A stretch of 64,000 nt of DNA from Trueperaceae bacterium (GCA_965213705.1 OZ243913.1:2336001-2400000), one strand, 5' to 3'. Counted from the first letter of the stretch, positions 19,458-51,840 are shown. The notes: generated from the sequence alone by a model not told the origin. A program made the numbers and translations.

Positions 19458-19514
19458 GGGGTTCCTTTGGTGGATTTGACAAGTACCGAGTACCGAGTGG
19501 AAAGTAGAATCCGG

Positions 19515-21519: not shown

Positions 21520-21611
21520 GATCAAAAAAGGACCGAGTACCAAGTAAAAAGTAAAACCTTGATTTTTTGAGTCAACGACGCCTTTCGGCTAGGGGCGTTA
21601 CACTACCTTTC

Positions 21612-23963: not shown

Positions 23964-24257
23964 ATAGATTGGCGACAAATGGATAGTTGTATAGTTTTCC
24001 TAGGATGTGCATGTGATTTCTAAAAGACGCTGCTTTGTCATCATGCCCTTTCACGATGACTATCGTGAGGTGTATGACCAAGTTTACAAGCTGGTTTGTG
24101 AAGCCAATGACGTTGACTGCTGGCGTGTTGATGAAATCGCACGTCCAGGTTCAATAACTCAAGATATTGTTGACGGAATAATTGATGCGGATTTAGTCAT
24201 CGCAGATCTTACTTCACAAAATCCCAATGTGTTTTACGAATTGGGAATATCGCATAG

Positions 24258-25461
24258 GGTAGTCAGGTGAGATTATCTCTTAGCTAAAGAAAGGGGAGCC
24301 GTTGATGACGCAAACTGCGTCACATGACAAAGAACCGACTCCCCCTAGAAAGCTTAGCGTGCGTGAATGATGAGTGTAAAGCCTATGGAGAGAAAGGGCA
24401 AGGCAACTTGAGCGTACGCAAGGTCTACAGCAAAGACGAAATACGTTATCTACGCTGTCGCCTTTGCGGTAAAGAGTTCAGCGAACGTAAACGCACCGCT
24501 TTGTGGAACACCAAACTGCGTGAGAAGAAAGCGATTAAGGTAGCCGAGCAACTTTCTGAGGGCACCTGCTATGAGGGCACAGCTCGTGCTATGAGGGCAC
24601 AGCTCGTTTGCTGAGGGTGTCTGTTGGGGCAGTGCAGCGCTTGGCGGGTTGTTTGGGCAAACATGGTCAGAGGTTTCATGACGAGCGGGTAAGGCATTTA
24701 CCGTCGACAGCGTTGCAAGCCGACGAGCGTTGGGGGTATGCAGGCAACAAAAAGCAGCAACAGTGGGAGGCCGAAGTCATCGACCTCAAAAGTCGCTTGG
24801 TCGTTGAGCGTGCTCTGGGCAAGCGCGATGAAACGCTGATAGCGAGGGTGCTGAGGGGCGCAGCAGCCAGAGTGTCCTATCCTCAAGGGGTGGTGCTCTT
24901 CTCGGATGGCGAGCACAGCTACAAAACTCTCTTCCCAAAGGTGTTCGGCACACCCTACCAACCAAGCCGTAAGGGAGGGCGTGGTCGCCGTCCCGACCTC
25001 CGTTACCGTATCGGGCGTCGTCAAGCTCATGTGCGGGTCGTTAAACGACACCAGGGGAAACGTCTGGTCGAAGTGAGCGTCGACCTGGCACATGGGAGCA
25101 ACAAGCGTCTCCAGCGAGAACTGCAACGCCTGGGTTACAACCAGCCCAACACCAGCGCTATCGAACGTCGCAACGGCACCGCCAGACGCATGGACGCGTT
25201 CAGCGTCCGCAAATCGCTAGCCTTTGCCCGTCGGCCCGAGTCTCGCAACGCCAACGGCGCTTGGAGCATCACTGTCTACAACTGGGGACGAGCGAACCGC
25301 TCACTCAGAAAGCTTCTACCGGAACCTCAAGGCAGAAAGCTCTATGAGCAGCGCTCTCCCGCGATGGCCGCTGGCCTGACCGACTCCCTTTGGTCGGTCG
25401 AAGACATCCTTCGCTATCAGCCTTTCCCTCCAGGTCCATGAGATAATCTCACGGCACTGCC
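24258..25461 (+). mobile_element. IS1-family-like insertion sequence, 1204 bp
   Basis: IRL ggtagtcaggtgagattatctc; IRR reverse complement ggcagtgccgtgagattatctc; 8-bp TSD tcgcatag at 24250-24257 and 25462-25469. Confidence 0.9.
24324..25441 (+). pseudogene. IS1-family transposase, frameshifted by a 20-bp tandem duplication
   Basis: N-terminal Zn ribbon (CVNDEC...CRLC); DDE-type QADERW, FSDG, IERRN; tgctatgagggcacagctcg duplicated at 24567-24606. Confidence 0.85.
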
Positions 25462-26016
25462 TCGCATAGTATTGGAAACAAAACTACAATGACAGCACAG
25501 TCACTGGACGATGTTCCTTTTGATATTGCAAGCTACCGTATAATACTTTACGAACAATCAATTTCCGGCAGTAAAAAATTGTTTGCCGCTCTTGATCAAG
25601 CAGTCAAAGAACTACTGTCCAGCTTGGACAAAACCAACAACCCTGTTCAAGAAGCTTTCAGTAAACGATCGGTGACTGGGATTCGGCACCGTAAGCCGCT
25701 CATTCAAGTTATAAATGTTGCTAAGCTGCATAAGTCTCTGAAAACTTTGATAGAAAACGAAAACATTAAGTATGTAGAGGATTTGAAAAAACTCAATCTG
25801 GAAAAGATGAAAGAAAAGTATGACCTTGGCGCAACTAATCTTACGACCTTGGTAAAAATTGTTTTAAAGAATGAAGCTTATGATGATTTAGATGTTCTTC
25901 AAGAGCTAATTTTGAAATATCGTCTTGATATGTCACAGGGATATAGGTCACCAAGCTGGGAAATGTGACAGCCGAGTAAAGCCACTCTTTTTTCGTTTCT
26001 GCGCTAGACTGTCACC

Positions 26017-41379: not shown

Positions 41380-42603
41380 TTATGACCTGTCGACCTCGAG
41401 CACCCCCATCACCCACCGCTGTTTTGCCTCCGGCCAGGTCTCGAAAAGCTCGACGAACCTCTCTTTGTCAACTTTATAAAGCTCCACCACATCGCGCGGC
41501 TCGAGCCTCAACAGCAACTGCTGGACGACTTCGCGCTGGTGCCCGGCGACGGTTTCATGCGGGCGCAGCAGCAACTTTGTGAGGTCGGGGGAAAGTTGTT
41601 CGGGCCGTACCCGGTCGCCCCGCTCCAACTTGGTGACGAGGTATTCAAGCTCGAGCAGCGTCTCGGGCACTTCGGACTGCAGCTCGAGCAAGCGCCCCTT
41701 GCGCTGCGGCGGCGTGAGGGCGGCGAAGTCGGTGTCGGGGTCGTGCTCGAAAAACAGGTCGGCGAGCAAAAATTCGCGCTTTTGGCGCAGCGCGTCCGGG
41801 TGGGCGCGGTACCAGGCTAAGTCAATTTCGACGAGGTTTTCGGCCTGCAGGTGCTCGAGCAGTTCGGGGTCGCGCAAAAAAACGGCGTGCCGTTTGCTCG
41901 TCAAAGCCTCGAACTCGGCTTCGTTTTCCAAAACGAGGTAGGCGTTGCCGCCACGAGAACGCAGCACAAATACGCCTCCGAAAGCCGGGGTATAGAAGTT
42001 GGCCGTTTCTTCGAAAACAACGTCGGGGATGCCCAGACGCCGCGCGCGCAGGTCGCCGTGGGTGCGAGCGCTGTCCATAATTCGCTGCCGCAGCGCTGGG
42101 TCGAACCAGGCCAGCCGCTCGTCCCTGAACCGCTCCACGAGTTCGTTTTGCTCGGCAGCGACCGCGCCGAGCCCGCCCGCGTTGGAGCGCACCGTCACCG
42201 ACTCGACCCGGAGGAGGTTTTGCGGGTTGGCGTAGGTGCTGAACCCCTGGTCGAACTCCAATTGCAGCGCGGTCTCGCGGGTCAGGTCGGCGATTTCAGC
42301 CCCAAAGCGCGCGTAGTAGCTCGCCATAAGGGGGCGCTCGAACGACATGACCGGCGCGTACAAGGCGCTGCCACGTTGGTCGACGGTGAGGATGACGGCG
42401 AACGAGTTTGCCAGACCCTGCGTCAGGTAGTAACGTTTCCCCTTTTCCGCCGCGATTTCAGGACTCCAGCCTGAGCCGTCGATTTGAAAATTGGTGAGGG
42501 TCGTCGGCGCTAGCCCGAGTTCGGTCAGCGCGTCGTTGTAGCGCTTCACGAGCGCCGGACTGGTGATGCGGACGAGGTCGGGGTAGTGGGTTTCGGGCGT
42601 CAT
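41380..42603 (-). CDS. Uncharacterised protein, DUF6638-like
   Basis: SPALVKRYN...FQIDGSGWSPEI and NFYTPAFGGVFV resemble the DUF6638 family as recalled (unverified); last gene of the AAA cluster. Confidence 0.65.
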   Translation of the reverse strand: MTPETHYPDLVRITSPALVKRYNDALTELGLAPTTLTNFQIDGSGWSPEIAAEKGKRYYLTQGLANSFAVILTVDQRGSALYAPVMSFERPLMASYYARFGAEIADLTRETALQLEFDQGFSTYANPQNLLRVESVTVRSNAGGLGAVAAEQNELVERFRDERLAWFDPALRQRIMDSARTHGDLRARRLGIPDVVFEETANFYTPAFGGVFVLRSRGGNAYLVLENEAEFEALTSKRHAVFLRDPELLEHLQAENLVEIDLAWYRAHPDALRQKREFLLADLFFEHDPDTDFAALTPPQRKGRLLELQSEVPETLLELEYLVTKLERGDRVRPEQLSPDLTKLLLRPHETVAGHQREVVQQLLLRLEPRDVVELYKVDKERFVELFETWPEAKQRWVMGVLEVDRS

Positions 42604-42640
42604 CGGTGGCCTCGAGAGCAAAGGGGTAATGAGTGAAGAA

Positions 42641-42728
42641 AGTACCGAGTACCGAGTAAAAAGTAAAAAGTGAGGTCAAAAAGGAGCGTGGTAGCATCCG
42701 CCCAAGCTTTTACCTCCCCGCTCCTTTT
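42641..42728. repeat. Heptamer repeat (agtaccg/agtaaaa) plus hairpin
   Basis: agtaccg agtaccg agtaaaa agtaaaa agtgagg, then aaaaggagcg...cgctcctttt; related arrays at 19482, 21529 and 37497. Confidence 0.75.
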
Positions 42729-42741
42729 CTCCTCAACCTGC

Positions 42742-44694
42742 TTACTTCTCATCTCTCGCCGCCACCCGCCGCGCTACCTCTTCGCGCAGCCGCACGTCCT
42801 TGACCATCTCGTCCAGGCGGCGTTCGCGCGTCACGTTCTGGATGCGGACCAAGTTGTCGAGGTACTGTACCGACTCTTGCAGCCGGATGTCCGCAAAGGA
42901 CAAGCCCTTCATGTTGGCGTGCATGAGTTCGATGAGCTTACCCTTTTTGGTTTCATAATCGGTCGCGAAAAAGAGGCTGTGGTCGTCGAACCACTCGTCG
43001 GGCAAGCCGAAATCCATCACGCGGTTGTTGACGGCTTGCTGGATGTTGCGCACGTCTCGAGAGGTGAAAAAGGGAAAAGCGGCTTGCGTTTGCCGGTAGA
43101 GTTCGGCAAAAAAGGCGTGCTGGCTGGGTTGGTAGTCACGGCGGACACGCTCGAGAACCTTACCAATTACGGCCTCTTCGGGCTCGGCGTCCCCGTCGTG
43201 CGCTTCGGACAGACTGCTCAGCCCGGCCTGGTCGGTGAGGTAGGTGTACTCCGGGTCTTGCATCTCGATGAACTTAGGGTCTATTTCCGCGTAGCGCCGC
43301 CACCACAAGTAATCCTGGTCCAAAAAGTCTTCCCGCGTTTCGGCCCCGTCCACCGGAAAGCGGGCGACGACGCGCGACAGGACGGCCTTGTCGAGCTGGT
43401 CGGGGAGGTTGGTAAAGATGTCGATGGCGGCGTTGCCGCGCTGCACCGCGTAAGCGCCCTCGGTGTAGCGCAAAAACACGCCGATGACCTCGCGCACGCC
43501 CGCCGAGACGCCCTGGCGCGTGCGGTCTTCAAGGTTGTTCTCCGCGTCGTCGATGGGCGCGTAGATGATTTTGCCGGGGTCTTGCAGGGGCCGCATCCAC
43601 GCCACCATCCGCTCGGCGCTGCCGCCCTGGAAGGTCGAGACGACCGTGTCCGGCAGCGGCCAGAACAAAAAGGGGATGCCCAACGCCTGGCAATGGTCGT
43701 GCAACATCGTCGCGGTGGCGGCGATTTGCAAACTCTTCCCGGTGCCCGGTTTGCCGTAGCCGAGGCGCAAACTCGGGAAACCGCCGAGGTCTAAAAACGG
43801 GTTGCGCTGCGCCGCTAGGTCGTAACACAGCAGCCGCTCGACCAGTCGCCGCGCCCCGTGCTTGGCCGCGCGGTTGCCGACAATTTGGTTCAGTTCGACC
43901 CGGTTGAACTCGACGCTCGAGGTCGGCCCGCCCAGGTCTATTTCAAAGCCTTGCAGGTGAAAGTCGCCGTGCTCGAGCTTGTACGCCCGCGTTGTGAACG
44001 GCTCCGCAAACGCGAACGACGCCTCGCGCAGCTTGACCTCGTCCAGCACCGCGCGGAAGTAGAGTTGCGTCATCTTGACAAAGTCCAGGTCGGTTTGGAC
44101 GGCGCTCGAGTCCAGGTACATCCCGTAGTAAAACAGGTTGCACTGCAAGGCGCGCACCGGGTTTTGCAGCGACAGCTCGGGCACGCCCTGAAAGTCGAAT
44201 TGAAGGTTGCCTAGTTCTTCCACTTTGTAATCAGCCAGCTCGAAAGAAACGTAGTAGGCGCACACGAACACCGTAATCGCCGAGGCCGTCACGTACTTGC
44301 CGCGAAACTTGGTCTTTTGGGCTTCGCTCAGGCCGCCGCGGGCGTTTTGTTCGGTGAGTTGCTCCAAACCCGAAGCTTCGGTATAAAGTTTCGAAACGTA
44401 CATCCCGAGCTTGAGGCCTTCGCGCACGACGTGGAGCGTGTGGTTCACGTCGTCGTCGAGCAGCGCCTCGTCGCGGCTCGTTTGCCGGGCGATTTTGAGG
44501 AGCGAAACGGTTTCGGTCTGCGTGGTTGCTAAAGAAGATTCACGGTAACCCGGTGTGGCGCTCGGCGCAGGACGCTCGTTCAGCACGCCCGCTTTGGGTT
44601 GCCACTCGACTCGAGCCAGAAACGCGTTAGCGCGGGCGGTGAACTCGTTGAGTTCGTCTTGCTTGATGGGTAACCAAGAAACGCTGCTATCCAT
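42742..44694 (-). CDS. Classical-clade AAA ATPase with an uncharacterised N-terminal domain
   Basis: Walker A GKPGTGKS, pore loop VVSTFQGGS, Walker B APIDDAE, sensor/SRH FTNLPDQLDKAVLSR. Confidence 0.9.
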   Translation of the reverse strand: MDSSVSWLPIKQDELNEFTARANAFLARVEWQPKAGVLNERPAPSATPGYRESSLATTQTETVSLLKIARQTSRDEALLDDDVNHTLHVVREGLKLGMYVSKLYTEASGLEQLTEQNARGGLSEAQKTKFRGKYVTASAITVFVCAYYVSFELADYKVEELGNLQFDFQGVPELSLQNPVRALQCNLFYYGMYLDSSAVQTDLDFVKMTQLYFRAVLDEVKLREASFAFAEPFTTRAYKLEHGDFHLQGFEIDLGGPTSSVEFNRVELNQIVGNRAAKHGARRLVERLLCYDLAAQRNPFLDLGGFPSLRLGYGKPGTGKSLQIAATATMLHDHCQALGIPFLFWPLPDTVVSTFQGGSAERMVAWMRPLQDPGKIIYAPIDDAENNLEDRTRQGVSAGVREVIGVFLRYTEGAYAVQRGNAAIDIFTNLPDQLDKAVLSRVVARFPVDGAETREDFLDQDYLWWRRYAEIDPKFIEMQDPEYTYLTDQAGLSSLSEAHDGDAEPEEAVIGKVLERVRRDYQPSQHAFFAELYRQTQAAFPFFTSRDVRNIQQAVNNRVMDFGLPDEWFDDHSLFFATDYETKKGKLIELMHANMKGLSFADIRLQESVQYLDNLVRIQNVTRERRLDEMVKDVRLREEVARRVAARDEK

Positions 44695-45835
44695 GTACGT
44701 TTCCGTTCGCGTCGTAGCTCAGCACTCGAGCGCCTTCGAACTCCGGCACCCGCGCGGTCAACTCGTCCAAGTGCTGCGCCAGCGCGTGCGGCAGCAGCAC
44801 ACTCCTGTGAATCACCGAGGCGCGGCGCGCGTAGCTCTCGGGGTCGGACTCGGGGATGTGGAACAGCTCGCGCACCCGGCCGCCCGGCGCGAAGAGGCTG
44901 TTCGTCACGCTTTGGCGCCTCGAGAAGACAATCTCGTCGGTGATGAACAGGACTAAGTCGTCCTCGTCACCGTAAGCTTCCAGCAACTCCAAAATCGCCC
45001 CCTGGCTTTCATCCAACACCGCGCCCTCTTGTTCCAACAGCAGCGGCGTGTACAGCGGCCCGATGCCGATGCGTTTCAAGATTTTGGGGTGGATGGGCTC
45101 GAGGGCGTCGTCAATCGCCATCGCCAGGATGCCCACGTCGGGCACGCGGCCGCCCTCGGCCCGGATAACTTCCAACAGTTGCGCGTGGTTGACTTTGCGG
45201 TGCTCGAGCGGGTCGGCCTCGTTGTTCTGTTCAAACGTCATGACGTGGACGTAGGGCCGGTTCGTCTTGAAGTCGTAGCAGGCCCACGAAGCGAGGTAGG
45301 TACGCATGTCTTTCCGCGTCGGCTCCTGTTTGATGATGTTGTCGGGCTCGAGCATGAAGGGCATGAACAGCTTGCTTTCATCCAACATCTCGAGGTAGCC
45401 GCGCTCGGCGAGTTGCCACAAAAAGTCGACGGGTTCTTGTTGGTACTTGAACAGGTAGTCGAGCGTGAGGCTTTTAAGCATACTCTCGGCGGGCAGGTCG
45501 CGCAGGCGTTCCTCGCGGTGAAGCAGGTCGACGCCGAGTGCGCTGACTTCCTGCGCGTTCGGAAAGCCGGAGTCGGTCAGGTCGACCCATAACAGCCGCG
45601 CGTGCGCGGGGCTGTGGGTGTATTTCAGCCGCAGCGTTTCGACGGTGTAGAGCAGGCGGCCTAGCGACGCGCCGACCACCGCGGCCTCGTAACTGTTTTC
45701 GCTGTCGTCCACGCGGTAGCTCTGCGCCAGCAGGTCGAACACCCGCCGCAGCAACCAAAAGTAACGCGTGTAGTCGTCGCTTTGGAGCAGCGTGAAGTCC
45801 GGGTTGTCGTGGATGAGGGAGGGTTGGTCGGTCAT
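44687..45835 (-). CDS. Uncharacterised 382-aa protein coupled to the AAA ATPase
   Basis: Long ORF with host-like codon use; 8-bp overlap with the AAA start; motifs DSGFP, WACYD, IHPKILKRIGIGPLY. Confidence 0.8.
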   Translation of the reverse strand: MTDQPSLIHDNPDFTLLQSDDYTRYFWLLRRVFDLLAQSYRVDDSENSYEAAVVGASLGRLLYTVETLRLKYTHSPAHARLLWVDLTDSGFPNAQEVSALGVDLLHREERLRDLPAESMLKSLTLDYLFKYQQEPVDFLWQLAERGYLEMLDESKLFMPFMLEPDNIIKQEPTRKDMRTYLASWACYDFKTNRPYVHVMTFEQNNEADPLEHRKVNHAQLLEVIRAEGGRVPDVGILAMAIDDALEPIHPKILKRIGIGPLYTPLLLEQEGAVLDESQGAILELLEAYGDEDDLVLFITDEIVFSRRQSVTNSLFAPGGRVRELFHIPESDPESYARRASVIHRSVLLPHALAQHLDELTARVPEFEGARVLSYDANGNVHG

Positions 45836-45874
45836 GGTCTGTGGCGGTTCAAGGTGAGACCTCGCTATAAAACA

Positions 45875-46285
45875 TTATGGCGTAAACCGCAAACCTTTTT
45901 GAAGGTTTTTGACGCTCCTCTTCCACTGAGGAAATTGTTCTTCGTTTTCACTCCAAAGCTCAAACAATTCGGAATCCTCTTGCAAAACACGTTTTAGCCC
46001 CCTTTGTGCAAGCTTAACTAGGCTGCTGTCGGCACTGATTTGATTTGCCCGCAGCCAGCTTTCTGCTTTTTCGGGTAGTTGCACGTCAAAGTCAGGGTTC
46101 AAACTGGCGACGATTGCGGCAGCGGCCACTGCTTCTTGACCGAAATCAACCTCGAGATATTCCTCTTCGGTAAGGACAATCTCAAACGTGTTTCTCAAAG
46201 GCGTAGCGTCGCTGTACTCTTGCAAAGTTCCGAGATAGTCGAGGGCTCCGTCATTATCGAAGTAAGTCGCGTCCCAAGCTCCCAT
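45875..46285 (-). CDS. DUF4259-like protein
   Basis: MGAWDATYFDNDGALD start and SELFELW C-terminal motif; AT-richer than its neighbours. Confidence 0.75.
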   Translation of the reverse strand: MGAWDATYFDNDGALDYLGTLQEYSDATPLRNTFEIVLTEEEYLEVDFGQEAVAAAAIVASLNPDFDVQLPEKAESWLRANQISADSSLVKLAQRGLKRVLQEDSELFELWSENEEQFPQWKRSVKNLQKGLRFTP

Positions 46286-46314
46286 ACTAAAGCTCCGATG
46301 CTCTACGCATAGAC

Positions 46315-47640
46315 TTAAAACGTCTCGCCCGCCTCCGCGCCTGCCTCGTCGCCGGGGTAGCTGAAAAACGAGCTTTTCGTCGGGTCGATGCCGTACTGGG
46401 ACTTGAACTGCTCGATGAGCTTGAGTTCGCGTTCGCGGATGCGGCTGATGGCCTCGGCCTGGGCGGCTCGAGCGTTGGCGATGTCGGCTATTCGCTGCGG
46501 GTGTTTTTCCATCCGGCGCATCCGGATTTCGTCCGAGACAGCTCCGGCCCGCGCCATGTACTCGACGTTGCGCTGGTCGGCCTCGGCCCCGAGGTCGTCG
46601 AGTTGCTTGGCGATGTCCTGGTCGGCCATCGCTTTCATCGCTTCGAGGCGTGAGCGAAAGGTCACCACCCGCTCTTCGGTGTCGCTGCGCAGCGCGGTAA
46701 TCCACATGCGCTGGTTGTCGCGCAGTTTCATCTGGGTGCGCTCGTGGACTTCGAGTTCCGAGGCGAACTTTTCCTTGCTCTGGAACAGCACGAAGGCGGT
46801 GTTGCGCCGCCCGCGCAACTCTTCGACCGCGGTGCGCAGTTGCGAGATTTTCTCGGTCTGTTGAGCGTGCTCGCTGGTGCCGTTGACGAGTGACTCGAGG
46901 GCGTCCTCCTCGGCGCGCAGTTTCGCCTCGGCGTCGTTGAGGCTCTGGTCGAGCTTTTCTAAGGCGCGGGCCGCTTCCTCTTTGACCTTGAACGCGGACG
47001 CTTTTTTAGCGCTGACGTTGCGGAGTTGCTTGTCGATTTCCTCTTTGCGGCGTTCCATAATCGCAATCGTCTTCTCGACGCGGAGCATAAACTCTTGCAG
47101 GGACGCTTCCATGTCGGCGCTCATGAGTCGCTGTCTGGCCTGGCGCTTCGTTTCGGACTTGGCCTCTTGCAGCCGCGCCTCGGCGGTTTGGAGGTCTTCT
47201 TCGGCGTCGGCAATGGCGCGCTCTTTGAAGAAGCGGCGTTTTTGCGCGGACTCCATCTTCTCTTGCGCCTCTTTGAGTTGGCTTTCAGCCTCGTCGAGGA
47301 TGGCCTGCTCCTCGCGCGAGGGCTGGTTTAAGTTGAGGTATTCCGAGCCCATGCTCTCGAGCACCGCGTTCAGCCCGAAGACCGCTTGGCCCAGGTCTTT
47401 TTCCTCCTGGGTCGCGTCCTTGCGGAGTTCTTCCAGGTCGGCGGTGAGGACTTTCATCCGCAAGTCGCGCTCGCGCGTGTCGCGCACCTTGGCGGCCTCG
47501 TCCATCTGCTGCTCCAGTTCGCTGAAGCGCGCCGAGAAGTCGGTCTGGTCGCGGTTGCGCGTTTCTAATTTGCTCACGGCGGTTTGCGTTTCGCCGGTGA
47601 GTTGGCTTAGAAGCTGGTCTGAACCTAGCGATTGCGTCAT
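46315..47640 (-). CDS. Long coiled-coil protein of unknown function
   Basis: About 441 aa, E/K/R/A/Q-rich with heptad pattern; AGGAGG RBS. Confidence 0.85.
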   Translation of the reverse strand: MTQSLGSDQLLSQLTGETQTAVSKLETRNRDQTDFSARFSELEQQMDEAAKVRDTRERDLRMKVLTADLEELRKDATQEEKDLGQAVFGLNAVLESMGSEYLNLNQPSREEQAILDEAESQLKEAQEKMESAQKRRFFKERAIADAEEDLQTAEARLQEAKSETKRQARQRLMSADMEASLQEFMLRVEKTIAIMERRKEEIDKQLRNVSAKKASAFKVKEEAARALEKLDQSLNDAEAKLRAEEDALESLVNGTSEHAQQTEKISQLRTAVEELRGRRNTAFVLFQSKEKFASELEVHERTQMKLRDNQRMWITALRSDTEERVVTFRSRLEAMKAMADQDIAKQLDDLGAEADQRNVEYMARAGAVSDEIRMRRMEKHPQRIADIANARAAQAEAISRIRERELKLIEQFKSQYGIDPTKSSFFSYPGDEAGAEAGETF

Positions 47641-47859: not shown

Positions 47860-50250
47860 ATGCGTCTTGTAACTCTTGGGGGGTTACAGCTAGACGGGGT
47901 CTCTTTCAACCGGGTCAAACCACTTCTTCTTCTCACCTACCTCGCACTTGAAGGTCCGCAGGAACGGCGGTACTTGGCCGAACTGTTTTGGCCCTTGGCG
48001 AGCAACCCCCTGAACAGCTTGTCGGTCGCCCTGATGCGGCTCAGGAAAGTGCTGCCGGGCAGCTTGGAGGCCGACGATACTCGAGCCTGGACAGGTATTG
48101 CGACCGATGTGGGTGAGTTGAACGCCAAGTTGAACGAGGGCGATTTCGAGGCGACGCGCCGCCTTTACGGCGGGCCGTTTGTGCACGGTGTGACGAACGA
48201 CTGGGGCGTCGAACTTGAAGAGTGGGTTTACGCCAAGCGTGAAGACTGCGCCGCGCGGGTGCAGCGCGCACTTCTCAAACTTGCTGAAAGCGAAGCGGCC
48301 CAGGGCCGTTTCGAAGCGGCGGCGCAGCGGGCCGAGGCGGGCTTTACCCTCGACTTCGCCCCCGAGCCGGAACCTGAAGACTTAGGCCGCCTGTACACGC
48401 TGTTGCAAGCGGGCGAAAGTCCGCTGGCGAGCAGGGTCAAAGAAGAAGCTGAAAGTTTCGACATCGCGCTGGGGTTGAGCGCGGCGGAGGCCAGAGCCCG
48501 CTTGCAGCGCGCCCTGCTGGGCCGCACGGAAGAGCAAGAATTACTGCGCTCTTTGGCCCCCGGCGAGTGGGCCTGGGTGCAGGGCCGCGCCGGGATGGGC
48601 AAGACGACGCTGCTGAAAAGCTTAAGCCCCCAGTTTTTGCCGGGCCGGAGCGGTCTGCCCTTCGCCACCGTCGCGCCGCTCGTCGGGCGGGCGCTGCAAG
48701 AAGGTGAAGGTGGCGTCCTGTACAAGCTGCGTGAAATACAGGGCACCCTGGCGATAGACAACTGGGAACTTGTGGACGCCGAGAGCCGGCGCGTGTTGCA
48801 AAAACTTTATGAGGTGGGCAGCGCGGCGCGCGTCGTCGTTTCGTCGCGGCAGAATCCGCCTTTCAAGCTTGACACGCGCGTCGAACTCGGTCCCTTGAGC
48901 CGGGAAGACTTGAGCACCGTGCCGGGCGCTTGGGAAAAAACCCAGGGCCTGCCCGCCTTTGTCGACGCTTTTTTGCGCGAGGACTCGCTGTCGCTGGTGC
49001 TCGAGGACAAACTCGAAGCCCTGTCGCCGCTGGCTTGTCAAGTCTACTTCGCCCTCACCCTCCTCGACGTACCCGACCCGGCCGCGGTGCGGCGGGCACT
49101 CCGCTTAAGCGCTACCGAGGCGGCCGAGGCCCTGGAAGACCTGCTGCGGCGCGGCTTCATCGAGCCGTCGGGCCAGGTGCGCGTGCGGCAGGCGGCGCAG
49201 GAGTACCTGAGCACGCGCCCCACGCTGCACGGCCCGCTCGCCTTGCAACTCGCTCGCGTGCTCGAGCCCGAGCGCGCCTTTCCGCTCTATCAGGCCGCCC
49301 GTCACCTGTGGCGCGACGAGGACGAACCCAGAGCCGTTGAAGCCTACCTTGCCTGGGCCGGAGAACTGCTCGAGCGCGGTTTTCCGCAGCGCGCGGTCGA
49401 GGTGTTGGACGACGCGCCCGTCGAGCGCCCGGTTACCTTTTTGAAAAGCCGCGCTTTAGAGCGGGCCGGGCGCTATCAAGAAGCTTTCGCCGCCGCCGTC
49501 CCGCTTGCCGAAACGCCGGGTGTACTCGCGCTGCGGGCCACGCTCCACTGGCGGTTGGGTAGGCCGGAGGAAGCGAGAGTGGCCGCCGAAGCCGCCCTGA
49601 AAGGGGAGATGTTCCCAAGGGCCGAAGGCTTAAACGTTCTGGGCCATTTAGACCTGTCCGCCGGGAAGCCTGAGACTGCTATGCAATTTTTTCGACGGGC
49701 GTCGGCGCTGTGGCTCGCGCTTGGCGAGACGACCCGCTGGGCTGGGTCGCTCAACAATTTAGCGCTTGCGCGAGTAGAGGTTGGTGAGAACGTCGAGACA
49801 GCTTTTGAAGAAGCTTTGGCGGCGGCGAGCCGTAATCTAAGGACTCAAGCCCTCGTAAAAATCAATTTAGGGCGCGAGTATGGTCGCCAGCACAGTTGGG
49901 AAAAAGCCGGCAGCGTTTTTGAAGAAGCCATTGCCTTGGCAGAGGAAACAGGTGAAGTTCGCCTTGCTAGCAATGCTTGGAACAATTTAGGTGTTTGTCT
50001 CGAGCAACATCAGCCCGAACAGGCGCGGCAAGCCTACAGGAAAGCTTTAGATTTGGCGCAGCGAGCTGGTGACCAGTTTATGGTGGCTGGCTCGCTGTCC
50101 AACCTAGCCGAACTCGAGGGCGACGCCGAAGCCTGGGAGGAGGCCATGCGGCTGTTCGAGGCGACGGGCAACCACGCCATCGTCGAGCAAAAACGCGCCC
50201 GTATCCCGCTCGACCACCCGGTCAGGCGGCGGTCAGGGCAAACTCATTAG
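47860..50250 (+). CDS. SARP-like regulator (wHTH/BTAD + P-loop + TPR)
   Basis: KPLLLLTYLALEG..RRYLAELFWP, LYGGPF, GRAGMGKTT, C-terminal TPRs (NNLG). Confidence 0.82.
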   Translation: MRLVTLGGLQLDGVSFNRVKPLLLLTYLALEGPQERRYLAELFWPLASNPLNSLSVALMRLRKVLPGSLEADDTRAWTGIATDVGELNAKLNEGDFEATRRLYGGPFVHGVTNDWGVELEEWVYAKREDCAARVQRALLKLAESEAAQGRFEAAAQRAEAGFTLDFAPEPEPEDLGRLYTLLQAGESPLASRVKEEAESFDIALGLSAAEARARLQRALLGRTEEQELLRSLAPGEWAWVQGRAGMGKTTLLKSLSPQFLPGRSGLPFATVAPLVGRALQEGEGGVLYKLREIQGTLAIDNWELVDAESRRVLQKLYEVGSAARVVVSSRQNPPFKLDTRVELGPLSREDLSTVPGAWEKTQGLPAFVDAFLREDSLSLVLEDKLEALSPLACQVYFALTLLDVPDPAAVRRALRLSATEAAEALEDLLRRGFIEPSGQVRVRQAAQEYLSTRPTLHGPLALQLARVLEPERAFPLYQAARHLWRDEDEPRAVEAYLAWAGELLERGFPQRAVEVLDDAPVERPVTFLKSRALERAGRYQEAFAAAVPLAETPGVLALRATLHWRLGRPEEARVAAEAALKGEMFPRAEGLNVLGHLDLSAGKPETAMQFFRRASALWLALGETTRWAGSLNNLALARVEVGENVETAFEEALAAASRNLRTQALVKINLGREYGRQHSWEKAGSVFEEAIALAEETGEVRLASNAWNNLGVCLEQHQPEQARQAYRKALDLAQRAGDQFMVAGSLSNLAELEGDAEAWEEAMRLFEATGNHAIVEQKRARIPLDHPVRRRSGQTH

Positions 50251-50286
50251 CTTGGGGGCGAAACGTCGGTTTAACCGGAGGTGGGT

Positions 50287-51840
50287 ATGAAAACAGGCTT
50301 GTTGATTGGGGTCGTTCTAGTCTTGGTAGTCGGGTGTACGCCAAGGGCCGAAGTTCCTACAGAAGAGGTTACGTTTGCGGTCGAGGAGGCTGCGCAGGGA
50401 GAATACGTCGCGGCGCGCTTAGGCGGTTTCAGCCTCGAGCTTTCTGCCAAGGTGAGTGTTTCGGTCGGCGGCGTGCCCGCCAGGGTCGTGTCGTTCAACG
50501 AGCGCGTCGTTGTGTTCGAAGTGCCACTGAAAGCCCGTGAGACGGCTGAACTCGTCCCGGTCGTCGTGTCGGACGGCCGCGTCACGGCTGAGGGACGCTT
50601 AAAAATCCTCGGTGAGGTCGTTCCCGGAAGAGTTATTTTGCTCGTGTTGCCGGATGTCGATTTGACCGCTGGGCTAAGCCAAGCCTTGCAAAACTTTTTC
50701 GAGCGCGAAGACGGCCTGTTCCGTGGCCTGCAAACCGTGACGGGCGAACCTGTGGGGCCAGGGATTGAAGAACGGCGCACGCTCCTTAATCCGCTGAGTG
50801 ACACGGGTTTTGAGGGCAGTATCGAAGAAAATATGAGCTTGTTAAGGGAAACCGGCTCGCCTTGCTTGGGTGACTTGGTGATTTTAGACCTCAACGGTGT
50901 TCCCCTCGAGGAAATCCTGCAAGAACTTGCCGAAGTAAACTTACCCGGTGACGGTGATATGTACGGAGCTGGCGACCAGAGCGGAGAAGAAGCTCTAAAA
51001 ACCATCGGTATCGACCCCACCGCCCGGCTTTTTACAGGCTTGGGCGTTACCATCGCCGTTTTGGACTCGGGGCTAGACCGAGAACTGTTCGGCAGGCCCT
51101 GGCTCGAGACTTTGGCCTACAACTTCGTCAGCGACAGCAGAACGAACCTTGACGTCTACGCCCTGCACGGCACCGCCGCCGCCCTGGCCGCCGCCGGTGT
51201 CGGGGTCGGCGTGGCCCCGGCCGCCGACCTCCTCCCCCTGAAAGTTTGTGACGGCGACGACGTGCGCTGCCGGGCGGACCATGTGGCCCTGGGCATTTGC
51301 CACGCGCTTGTCCACGCGCCGCGCGGCCCCGAAAACCTTGTCATGAACCTCAGCTTCGGCAGCCCGCTCGACGTCACCGTGCATGAACTGCTCTTGGAGC
51401 ACGCCGTGACCAGGCTCGGCGTCGGCGTCGCGGCGTCGGCGGGCAACGAGGCTGGTTTGGGCTCGCCCCCACACTATCCGGCGGCTTACACATTTGTTAC
51501 CGAGACCCCCCGAGAAACAGGTGACGGCCTTATCGCGGTGGCGGCCCTGGACGCTAACTTGCAACCGTGGGCGGGCGGGACAAAGGGCGGCTACATCGAC
51601 GTGACCGCGCCCGGTGTCAACCTGCTCGACGGCGGCCTCGGGACTTCTTTTTCTGCGCCCTACGCGGCGGGCGCGGTGGCGCTGTTCAAAGAAGCCTCCG
51701 GCGGCCGACTGTCGCCCGGTGAGATTGAAGTGTGTCTCGAGCAGGGTGCCGACGCCAGCGCCGGGTTCGCCGCGGACGAGGTCGGCAGCGGCGTGTTGAA
51801 CGTGGCCGACGCTTTGAAAATCTGTGGGCTCGTCCCCTAG
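50287..51840 (+). CDS. S8 subtilase-family serine protease, putative lipoprotein
   Basis: Lipobox-like VVGC; catalytic IAVLDSG, HGT, GTSFSAP; oxyanion SAGN. Confidence 0.88.
   Translation: MKTGLLIGVVLVLVVGCTPRAEVPTEEVTFAVEEAAQGEYVAARLGGFSLELSAKVSVSVGGVPARVVSFNERVVVFEVPLKARETAELVPVVVSDGRVTAEGRLKILGEVVPGRVILLVLPDVDLTAGLSQALQNFFEREDGLFRGLQTVTGEPVGPGIEERRTLLNPLSDTGFEGSIEENMSLLRETGSPCLGDLVILDLNGVPLEEILQELAEVNLPGDGDMYGAGDQSGEEALKTIGIDPTARLFTGLGVTIAVLDSGLDRELFGRPWLETLAYNFVSDSRTNLDVYALHGTAAALAAAGVGVGVAPAADLLPLKVCDGDDVRCRADHVALGICHALVHAPRGPENLVMNLSFGSPLDVTVHELLLEHAVTRLGVGVAASAGNEAGLGSPPHYPAAYTFVTETPRETGDGLIAVAALDANLQPWAGGTKGGYIDVTAPGVNLLDGGLGTSFSAPYAAGAVALFKEASGGRLSPGEIEVCLEQGADASAGFAADEVGSGVLNVADALKICGLVP

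Follow-up and report, generated by a model that had tools for sequence, protein, structure and literature searches.

What does a compact set of genes do when it is built around an AAA ATPase and none of its parts has an assigned function or a close solved relative? Such a set lies on the minus strand of a 64,000-nucleotide stretch of the genome of a Trueperaceae bacterium (GCA_965213705.1). This stretch, the window (G000:C1:2336001-2400000), comes from an assembly that is one 4.25-Mb contig and 98% complete. The set encodes a coiled-coil protein (CC), a protein without a family (X), the ATPase, and a DUF6638 protein, with a DUF4259 gene between CC and X. A preliminary description, made from the sequence alone, had proposed a dedicated cytoplasmic system in which the ATPase assembles or disassembles polymers of the coiled-coil protein. 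We found that four of these genes form a module that is real and widely conserved. The module also appears to be undescribed. The literature we searched, mostly open-access main text, gave no account of it and no paper naming DUF6638, and the available parts of PMC7824862 and PMC13622651 do not describe the module. We tentatively propose that the ATPase remodels a membrane-binding scaffold made of CC.

How firmly are the four genes linked? A scan of species genomes for relatives yielded at least 558 encoding stretches, of which the best 80 were analyzed. By title, 68 of these are Bacteroidota, and the rest belong to Desulfobacterota, Verrucomicrobiota, Bdellovibrionota, Patescibacteria, and Trueperaceae, with one unassigned. 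Here and in the samples described next, many loci are close kin, and the counts are not independent. Where the flank reaches at least 2.6 kb, 73 of 73 loci have CC and X upstream of the ATPase (in one locus, CC was recognized by hidden Markov model only), and DUF6638 lies downstream in 77 of 78 loci with at least 300 nt of flank. A distant clade of ATPases, about 27% identical, is represented by 10 records of a plasmid collection from Sinorhizobium, Shinella, Rhizobium, and Vibrio (some chromosome-sized). The four of these records that we examined each hold all four genes in order. Moreover, both flanks are available for 50 of 80 distant-clade metagenome loci, and the four genes are in order in all 50. 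Because gene order is kept between proteins that are only about 27% identical, the clustering is far above chance. The preliminary description had mentioned similar proteins in other phyla; the survey places them there, co-localized as a conserved unit. As the order is kept across at least seven phyla, including the tiny genomes of Patescibacteria, the function of the module is probably basic.

The module is present in S. meliloti, a genetic model species and thus open to experiment, and its spread is patchy. It is rare near the source of the window, in 4 of 301 genomes of the window's phylum, all of them from the window's family, and in 5 of 61 genomes of that family. The ATPases of the family form one clade in a quick tree (Shimodaira–Hasegawa-like approximate likelihood ratio test, 99), which fits a single acquisition. 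Searches of viral contigs and of a phage collection turned up no relatives, and the listing showed no RNA holder. The spacers of the module look like insertion hot spots in Flavobacteriaceae, where the loci (L018-L081) carry many unrelated passenger genes between the core genes (for example, L058:7553-8143). A NUDIX hydrolase gene is found in 23 of the 80 loci, mostly in the spacer between the ATPase and DUF6638. Two "plasmid" records of 3.7 and 4.6 Mb (L082 and L084) carry tdk, choXWV, and formate-tetrahydrofolate ligase and are probably mislabeled chromosomes.

Does the module work at a membrane? In the first clade, DUF6638 is followed by a 175-aa gene with a transmembrane (TM) segment in 67 of the 72 loci with 4 kb downstream, and by a 560-aa, 3-TM gene in 68 of them; the pair has two or three TM segments, and neither protein belongs to a Pfam family above the cut-off. 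The distant clade encodes a DUF2333-like protein downstream in 61 of 61 loci and the 175/560-aa pair in 0 of 61. A TM-like segment is located at the N-terminus of 66 of 68 DUF2333-like open reading frames (ORFs), and the S. meliloti gene downstream of the module is a DUF2333 gene (PF10095). In the window, what comes after DUF6638 is not a membrane gene but a convergent GNAT gene, with the two stop codons 7 nt apart. Profiles of the 175-aa and 560-aa genes had no match in the window's genome, nor did PF10095 in a search that had no positive control, and tblastn with 9 of the 68 DUF2333-like proteins gave one marginal match (58 aa, E 0.009). The membrane partner is therefore swappable: it is a 3-TM pair, a DUF2333 protein, or, in the window's genome, not found. 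The window appears to hold a minimal soluble core that can stand without an anchor gene, because no usual membrane gene was found in a 98%-complete genome; an unrelated anchor may be encoded elsewhere in it. None of the five proteins of the cluster has a TM-like segment (19-residue window, hydropathy threshold 1.6), as had been claimed for four of them, and the idea of a purely cytoplasmic system fits this genome, but in most relatives the module is accompanied by membrane genes. As a minimal version with four soluble proteins, the window offers the simplest set to express and reconstitute.

The ATPase consists of an orphan N-terminal region of about 260 aa, an AAA core, and an extended helical C-terminal part. 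Its motifs are Walker A (314-321), pore-loop F355, Walker B (D382-D383-A-E385), sensor-1 N429, and R441/R445. The aromatic pore loop (STFQGG) and the second region of homology (SRH; TNLPDQLDKAVLSR), both pointed out earlier, are present and conserved. All 205 homologs have an intact Walker A, and the pore loop has the form S[TS][FY]QG in 203 of 205. An alignment of 28 ATPases shows no variation at E385, T428-N429, R441, or R445. No significant match was found in the PDB sequence search, either with the whole protein or with its profile. The AAA core alone has marginal neighbors there, the best being Cdc48 at E 0.0045, and these are Cdc48, Rpt4, fidgetin-like 1, Msp1, spastin, and Vps4, with plant SCARECROW proteins (two rows, E 1.2) as the exception. 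The AAA neighbors, all of the classic clade, lend some weight to the earlier description of a classic AAA unfoldase, but the Walker B sequence discussed below weakens the unfoldase part.

CC has 293 representative homologs at E≤1e-3, is 50-60% identical across phyla, and has no Pfam family above the cut-off. A model built from 110 sequences (predicted local distance difference test [pLDDT] 74.5, predicted template modeling score [pTM] 0.60) supports the claim that CC is all-helical. It consists of long hairpins, with helices at 178-248 and 256-359, and the C-terminal part is poorly modeled. Where helix 109-134 turns into helix 139-174, there is a basic-aromatic tip at about residues 132-142. 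At least one aromatic and at least two K/R residues are found there in 106 of 110 homologs, compared with 17% of same-sized windows, for a tip window picked after inspecting the data. Outside the tip, CC is acidic (isoelectric point 5.1), and the short forms of CC have a hydrophobic-basic stretch at an apparently matching position. We consider the tip a candidate membrane contact, by analogy with peripheral membrane proteins in general.

X and the DUF6638 protein have no PDB sequence relatives, for X at a significant level in a profile search. X is modeled with a helical N-terminal half and a β-sheet C-terminal half (pLDDT 89.2, pTM 0.87). No Foldseek match reached E≤0.001, and the best structural Z is 5.3. 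Residues ~174-336 weakly resemble the T-fold: the top Foldseek row is GTP cyclohydrolase I (E 0.07), many T-fold rows lie at Z 4-5 in the structural search, and QueD2, PTPS, uricase, and FolX give Z 4.7-5.3 (QueD2, Z 5.3, root-mean-square deviation [rmsd] 3.2, 95 aligned). This weak likeness is a lead only. An ESM Atlas search with a Flavobacterial X, whose own model was poor, gave no usable feature match.

What, then, might the module do? The explanation we favor, while stopping short of calling it probable, is ATP-dependent remodeling of a membrane-binding CC scaffold by the AAA ATPase, resembling Vps4 and ESCRT in logic and not in ancestry. CC would bind the inner face of the membrane through the basic-aromatic hairpin tip and would likely assemble into a scaffold. 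The ATPase, a putative hexameric threading motor because of its aromatic pore loop, would dismantle or reshape that scaffold, with CC as the presumed substrate. Its hydrolysis could be slow or triggered by a partner. X would be a partner of the ATPase, since its stop codon overlaps the ATPase start, and X and DUF6638 are probable cofactors. The membrane genes of most relatives suggest that the module acts at the membrane, and if CC itself binds there directly, this would account for a core that persists without an anchor gene. We infer a role in envelope upkeep or stress. A lead toward ChvI was dropped: SMc02733, the putative ATPase gene, is represented in the available text of PMC3687685 by one of 27 clones, which is intragenic and unvalidated, and the ATPase gene of another strain has a GATC fragment of 160 nt, not 166 nt.

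Several findings weigh against this proposal. The fold matches of CC are generic coiled coils (best Z 12.5; best Foldseek E 0.045), and its match to the CHMP4B hairpin, at Z 10.4 with an rmsd of 1.3 for 78 residues, is ranked 29th, tied with unrelated coiled coils. Homology of CC to PspA/ESCRT-III is not supported by Pfam or hhalign: PspA_IM30 and Snf7 are not among the 25 of 32 Pfam families shown for the 110 CC homologs (the remaining seven have one member each), and hhalign against 25 PspA proteins gave a probability of 0.2-0.3%. A true PspA is encoded elsewhere in the same genome. Homology to TelA is likewise not supported. Pfam finds TelA in 0 of 30 short forms and not among the families shown for the 110 long forms, PF05816 has no match in the window's genome, and hhalign gave a probability of ≤0.2% (with a shallow TelA profile, number of effective sequences 1.85). 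Thus, the proposed link of CC to these families survives as an analogy and not as homology. The 560-aa profile had no match in four same-family carriers of the module or in Desulfonema magnum, where positive controls matched; together with the same result in the window's genome, this weakens the membrane link in these organisms. In another genome of the family (G020), DUF6638 is at C1:3475123-3476352 (-), ~126 kb from the ATPase. Finally, two features of the ATPase itself leave its motor activity uncertain. In the window's clade, a single Arg occupies the finger positions (S440-R441; L-S-R, compared with R-Q-R in the distant clade). Walker B is DD, not DE, in 203 of 205 homologs of both clades (the other two were not parsed), and the IDDAE of the window thus has Asp at the position of the usual catalytic Glu.

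Is the ATPase a motor at all? NSF D2 carries a DD motif as well. In the available text of PMC6696164, the classic clade is defined by the pore loop, an SRH with sensor-1 and two arginine fingers, and the Walker B Glu; the ATPase has the pore loop and sensor-1 and lacks that Glu. According to the same text, hydrolysis is linked to the Asp/Glu pair of Walker B, and Pex6 D1, in which the pair is missing, is unlikely to hydrolyze. The Asp-for-Glu change of the module, present in both clades, speaks for an AAA protein that acts as a nucleotide-bound scaffold or switch with little turnover, holding CC, X, and DUF6638 in a static complex instead of pulling on CC. We think this unlikely, though it deserves serious attention, because the pore loop, sensor-1 Asn, R441, and the acidic residue two places after DD (E385 here, Asp in the distant clade) are all strictly conserved and the AAA protein is the sole ATPase of the module. 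Judged by its motifs, the ATPase is classic-clade-like, and its hydrolysis may be slow or partner-triggered because Walker B is DD instead of DE. With a DD Walker B that occurs naturally, the module could show whether such an AAA ATPase works as a motor. Another account also involves threading: in a small machine for export or membrane insertion, the membrane partner would be the passage through which the ATPase threads CC or a client. The threading-type pore loop agrees with this, as do the large soluble domains of the membrane proteins that most carriers have, and helical pore-forming proteins and F-BAR domains are among the weakest Foldseek neighbors of CC, none significant. However, the core persists whether its membrane partner is exchanged or goes undetected, which is hard to reconcile with a channel, and we regard this account as highly improbable.

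Could the module instead be used in conflict with phages or other invaders, with CC sensing or blocking the invader and the ATPase resetting or triggering the response? The patchy spread in the family and the phylum is suggestive of this, as is occurrence on Vibrio and Rhizobium megaplasmid records and in Patescibacteria. But PADLOC gave no specific match: CC has only partial coiled-coil matches to JetC (23 bits) and LmuB, which we take as noise, and the other four window proteins of the cluster have none. Family-library scans found no nuclease or other known effector domain in the module proteins, in keeping with the earlier statement that no nuclease or enzyme motif is recognizable. In addition, the recurring neighbors in Flavobacteriaceae and S. 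meliloti look like housekeeping genes (not all neighbors were scanned against PADLOC), and the sequences, CC among them, change slowly across phyla. A role in defense is thus quite unlikely in our view. The C-terminal half of X raises the idea of a metabolic unit, in which X would be a T-fold-like enzyme or ring for a purine- or pterin-type molecule, matured or reactivated by the ATPase. T-fold proteins are ranked first in both fold searches, and the invariant charged or polar residues of X include D188, D242, E301, E323, and H350. The Z-scores are nevertheless below the level typical of unrelated models (7-8), TM-scores are under 0.3, and the coiled-coil and membrane partners are left unexplained, making this idea improbable. 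We retain remodeling of a CC scaffold as our tentative explanation.

The features of the locus are collected in Table 1. The four co-oriented ORFs were confirmed at the sizes given earlier, as were the strong ribosome-binding site of CC, the overlap of X with the ATPase start, and the membership in DUF6638. The earlier inventory was right for these four genes but overlooked the DUF4259 gene and the Asp-for-Glu change in Walker B.

Table 1. Coordinates of the module and associated features in the window
Feature	Position	Strand	Evidence
CC (coiled-coil), 441 aa, first gene of module	46315..47640	-	ORF; AGGAGG 6 nt before ATG
DUF4259 gene, 136 aa, between CC and X	45875..46285	-	PF14078, 114 bits
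X, 382 aa	44687..45835	-	ORF, no family; stop overlaps AAA start by 8 nt
AAA ATPase, 650 aa	42742..44694	-	PF00004, 30.4 bits (cut-off 21.2), residues 313-446
DUF6638 protein, 407 aa, last gene	41380..42603	-	PF20343, 165.8 bits (gathering cut-off 27)
Copy of short genome-wide repeat in 138-nt AAA-DUF6638 spacer	42645..42657	-	Not module-specific

NCBIfam yielded nothing above the cut-off, and Rfam had no match. The DUF4259 gene is likely a recent passenger, since its GC content is low (48%, and 50% at third codon positions, compared with about 61% and 80% in its neighbors) and it is missing from the CC-X site of a genome of the same genus (G032). The short repeat is possibly a REP-like intergenic element. 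Other copies in the window are at 19486-19498 and 21533-21545, the genome holds 46 exact copies against a naive expectation of 0.13, and the CC-X spacer of G032 has one too. The cluster is bordered on one side by the convergent GNAT gene and on the other by a divergent, regulator-like gene. On this divergent side (47860-51840, +), a 796-aa protein that has TPR repeats, a weak match to an NTPase, and an N-terminus that by eye may bind DNA is followed by a subtilase (S8) protein; the pair also flanks the module in G032 and was not seen at the other loci of the family. Elsewhere in the window, GC content falls to 0.50 at 24001-26000, compared with about 0.61, which possibly marks a small foreign insertion.

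How does the module compare with known systems? No characterized system matched, consistent with the preliminary description, which knew of no characterized function. The memberships in DUF6638 (PF20343), DUF2333 (PF10095), and DUF4259 (PF14078) are real, and all three are families of unknown function. TelA/KlaB (PF05816), listed among the components of sub-membrane structures in the available part of PMC7824862, is similar to CC in length, is all-helical, and has by eye a similar hydrophobic-basic turn. In one ESM Atlas cluster near CC (rank 25, score 0.85), 10% of the members carry TelA, a lead that was not confirmed. The short form of CC scored 6.6 against TelA in global mode, above 40 of 40 shuffles (maximum 5.7), and this was rejected as a trivial 27-column end overlap. 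At one locus (L091), TelA adjoins a protein with substrate-binding and vWA-like parts (by eye). With the classic-clade AAA proteins (Cdc48/p97, Rpt/PAN, fidgetin-like 1, spastin, Msp1, and i-AAA), the ATPase shares Walker A, the aromatic pore loop, and an SRH with the sensor-1 Asn; it differs in its orphan N-terminal region, DD Walker B, and long C-terminal extension, and its sequence resembles theirs marginally (E≥0.0045).

Operons that join PspA/Snf7 to AAA+ ATPases have been described, and ATP-dependent membrane remodeling has been proposed for them, in PMC11237479, whose available text contains no operon with this gene content. PspA is half the size of CC, which has no profile match to it, and X and DUF6638 have no counterpart in ESCRT or PspA systems. 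Unlike Vps4/CdvC, the ATPase has no Pfam MIT match (at the sequence level, where just PF00004 was found) and has a DD Walker B. By the tests run, then, the module is not a member of the ESCRT-III/Vps4, PspA, or TelA systems. What it shares with Vps4/CdvC and ESCRT-III, a family to which bacterial PspA/Vipp1 are related, is a single-ring, classic-type AAA ATPase whose pore loop is aromatic, encoded together with a hairpin protein that is all-helical and, in most cases, with membrane genes. Might this be a second, independently evolved ESCRT-like machine, with a non-ESCRT coiled-coil polymer, its own tip to grip the membrane, a dedicated DD-type AAA motor to recycle the polymer, and two cofactors without near solved relatives? 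We think this doubtful, but if true, an ESCRT-like machine with different membrane anchors (none in the window) would span rhizobia, Vibrio, Flavobacteria, Patescibacteria, and Deinococcota.

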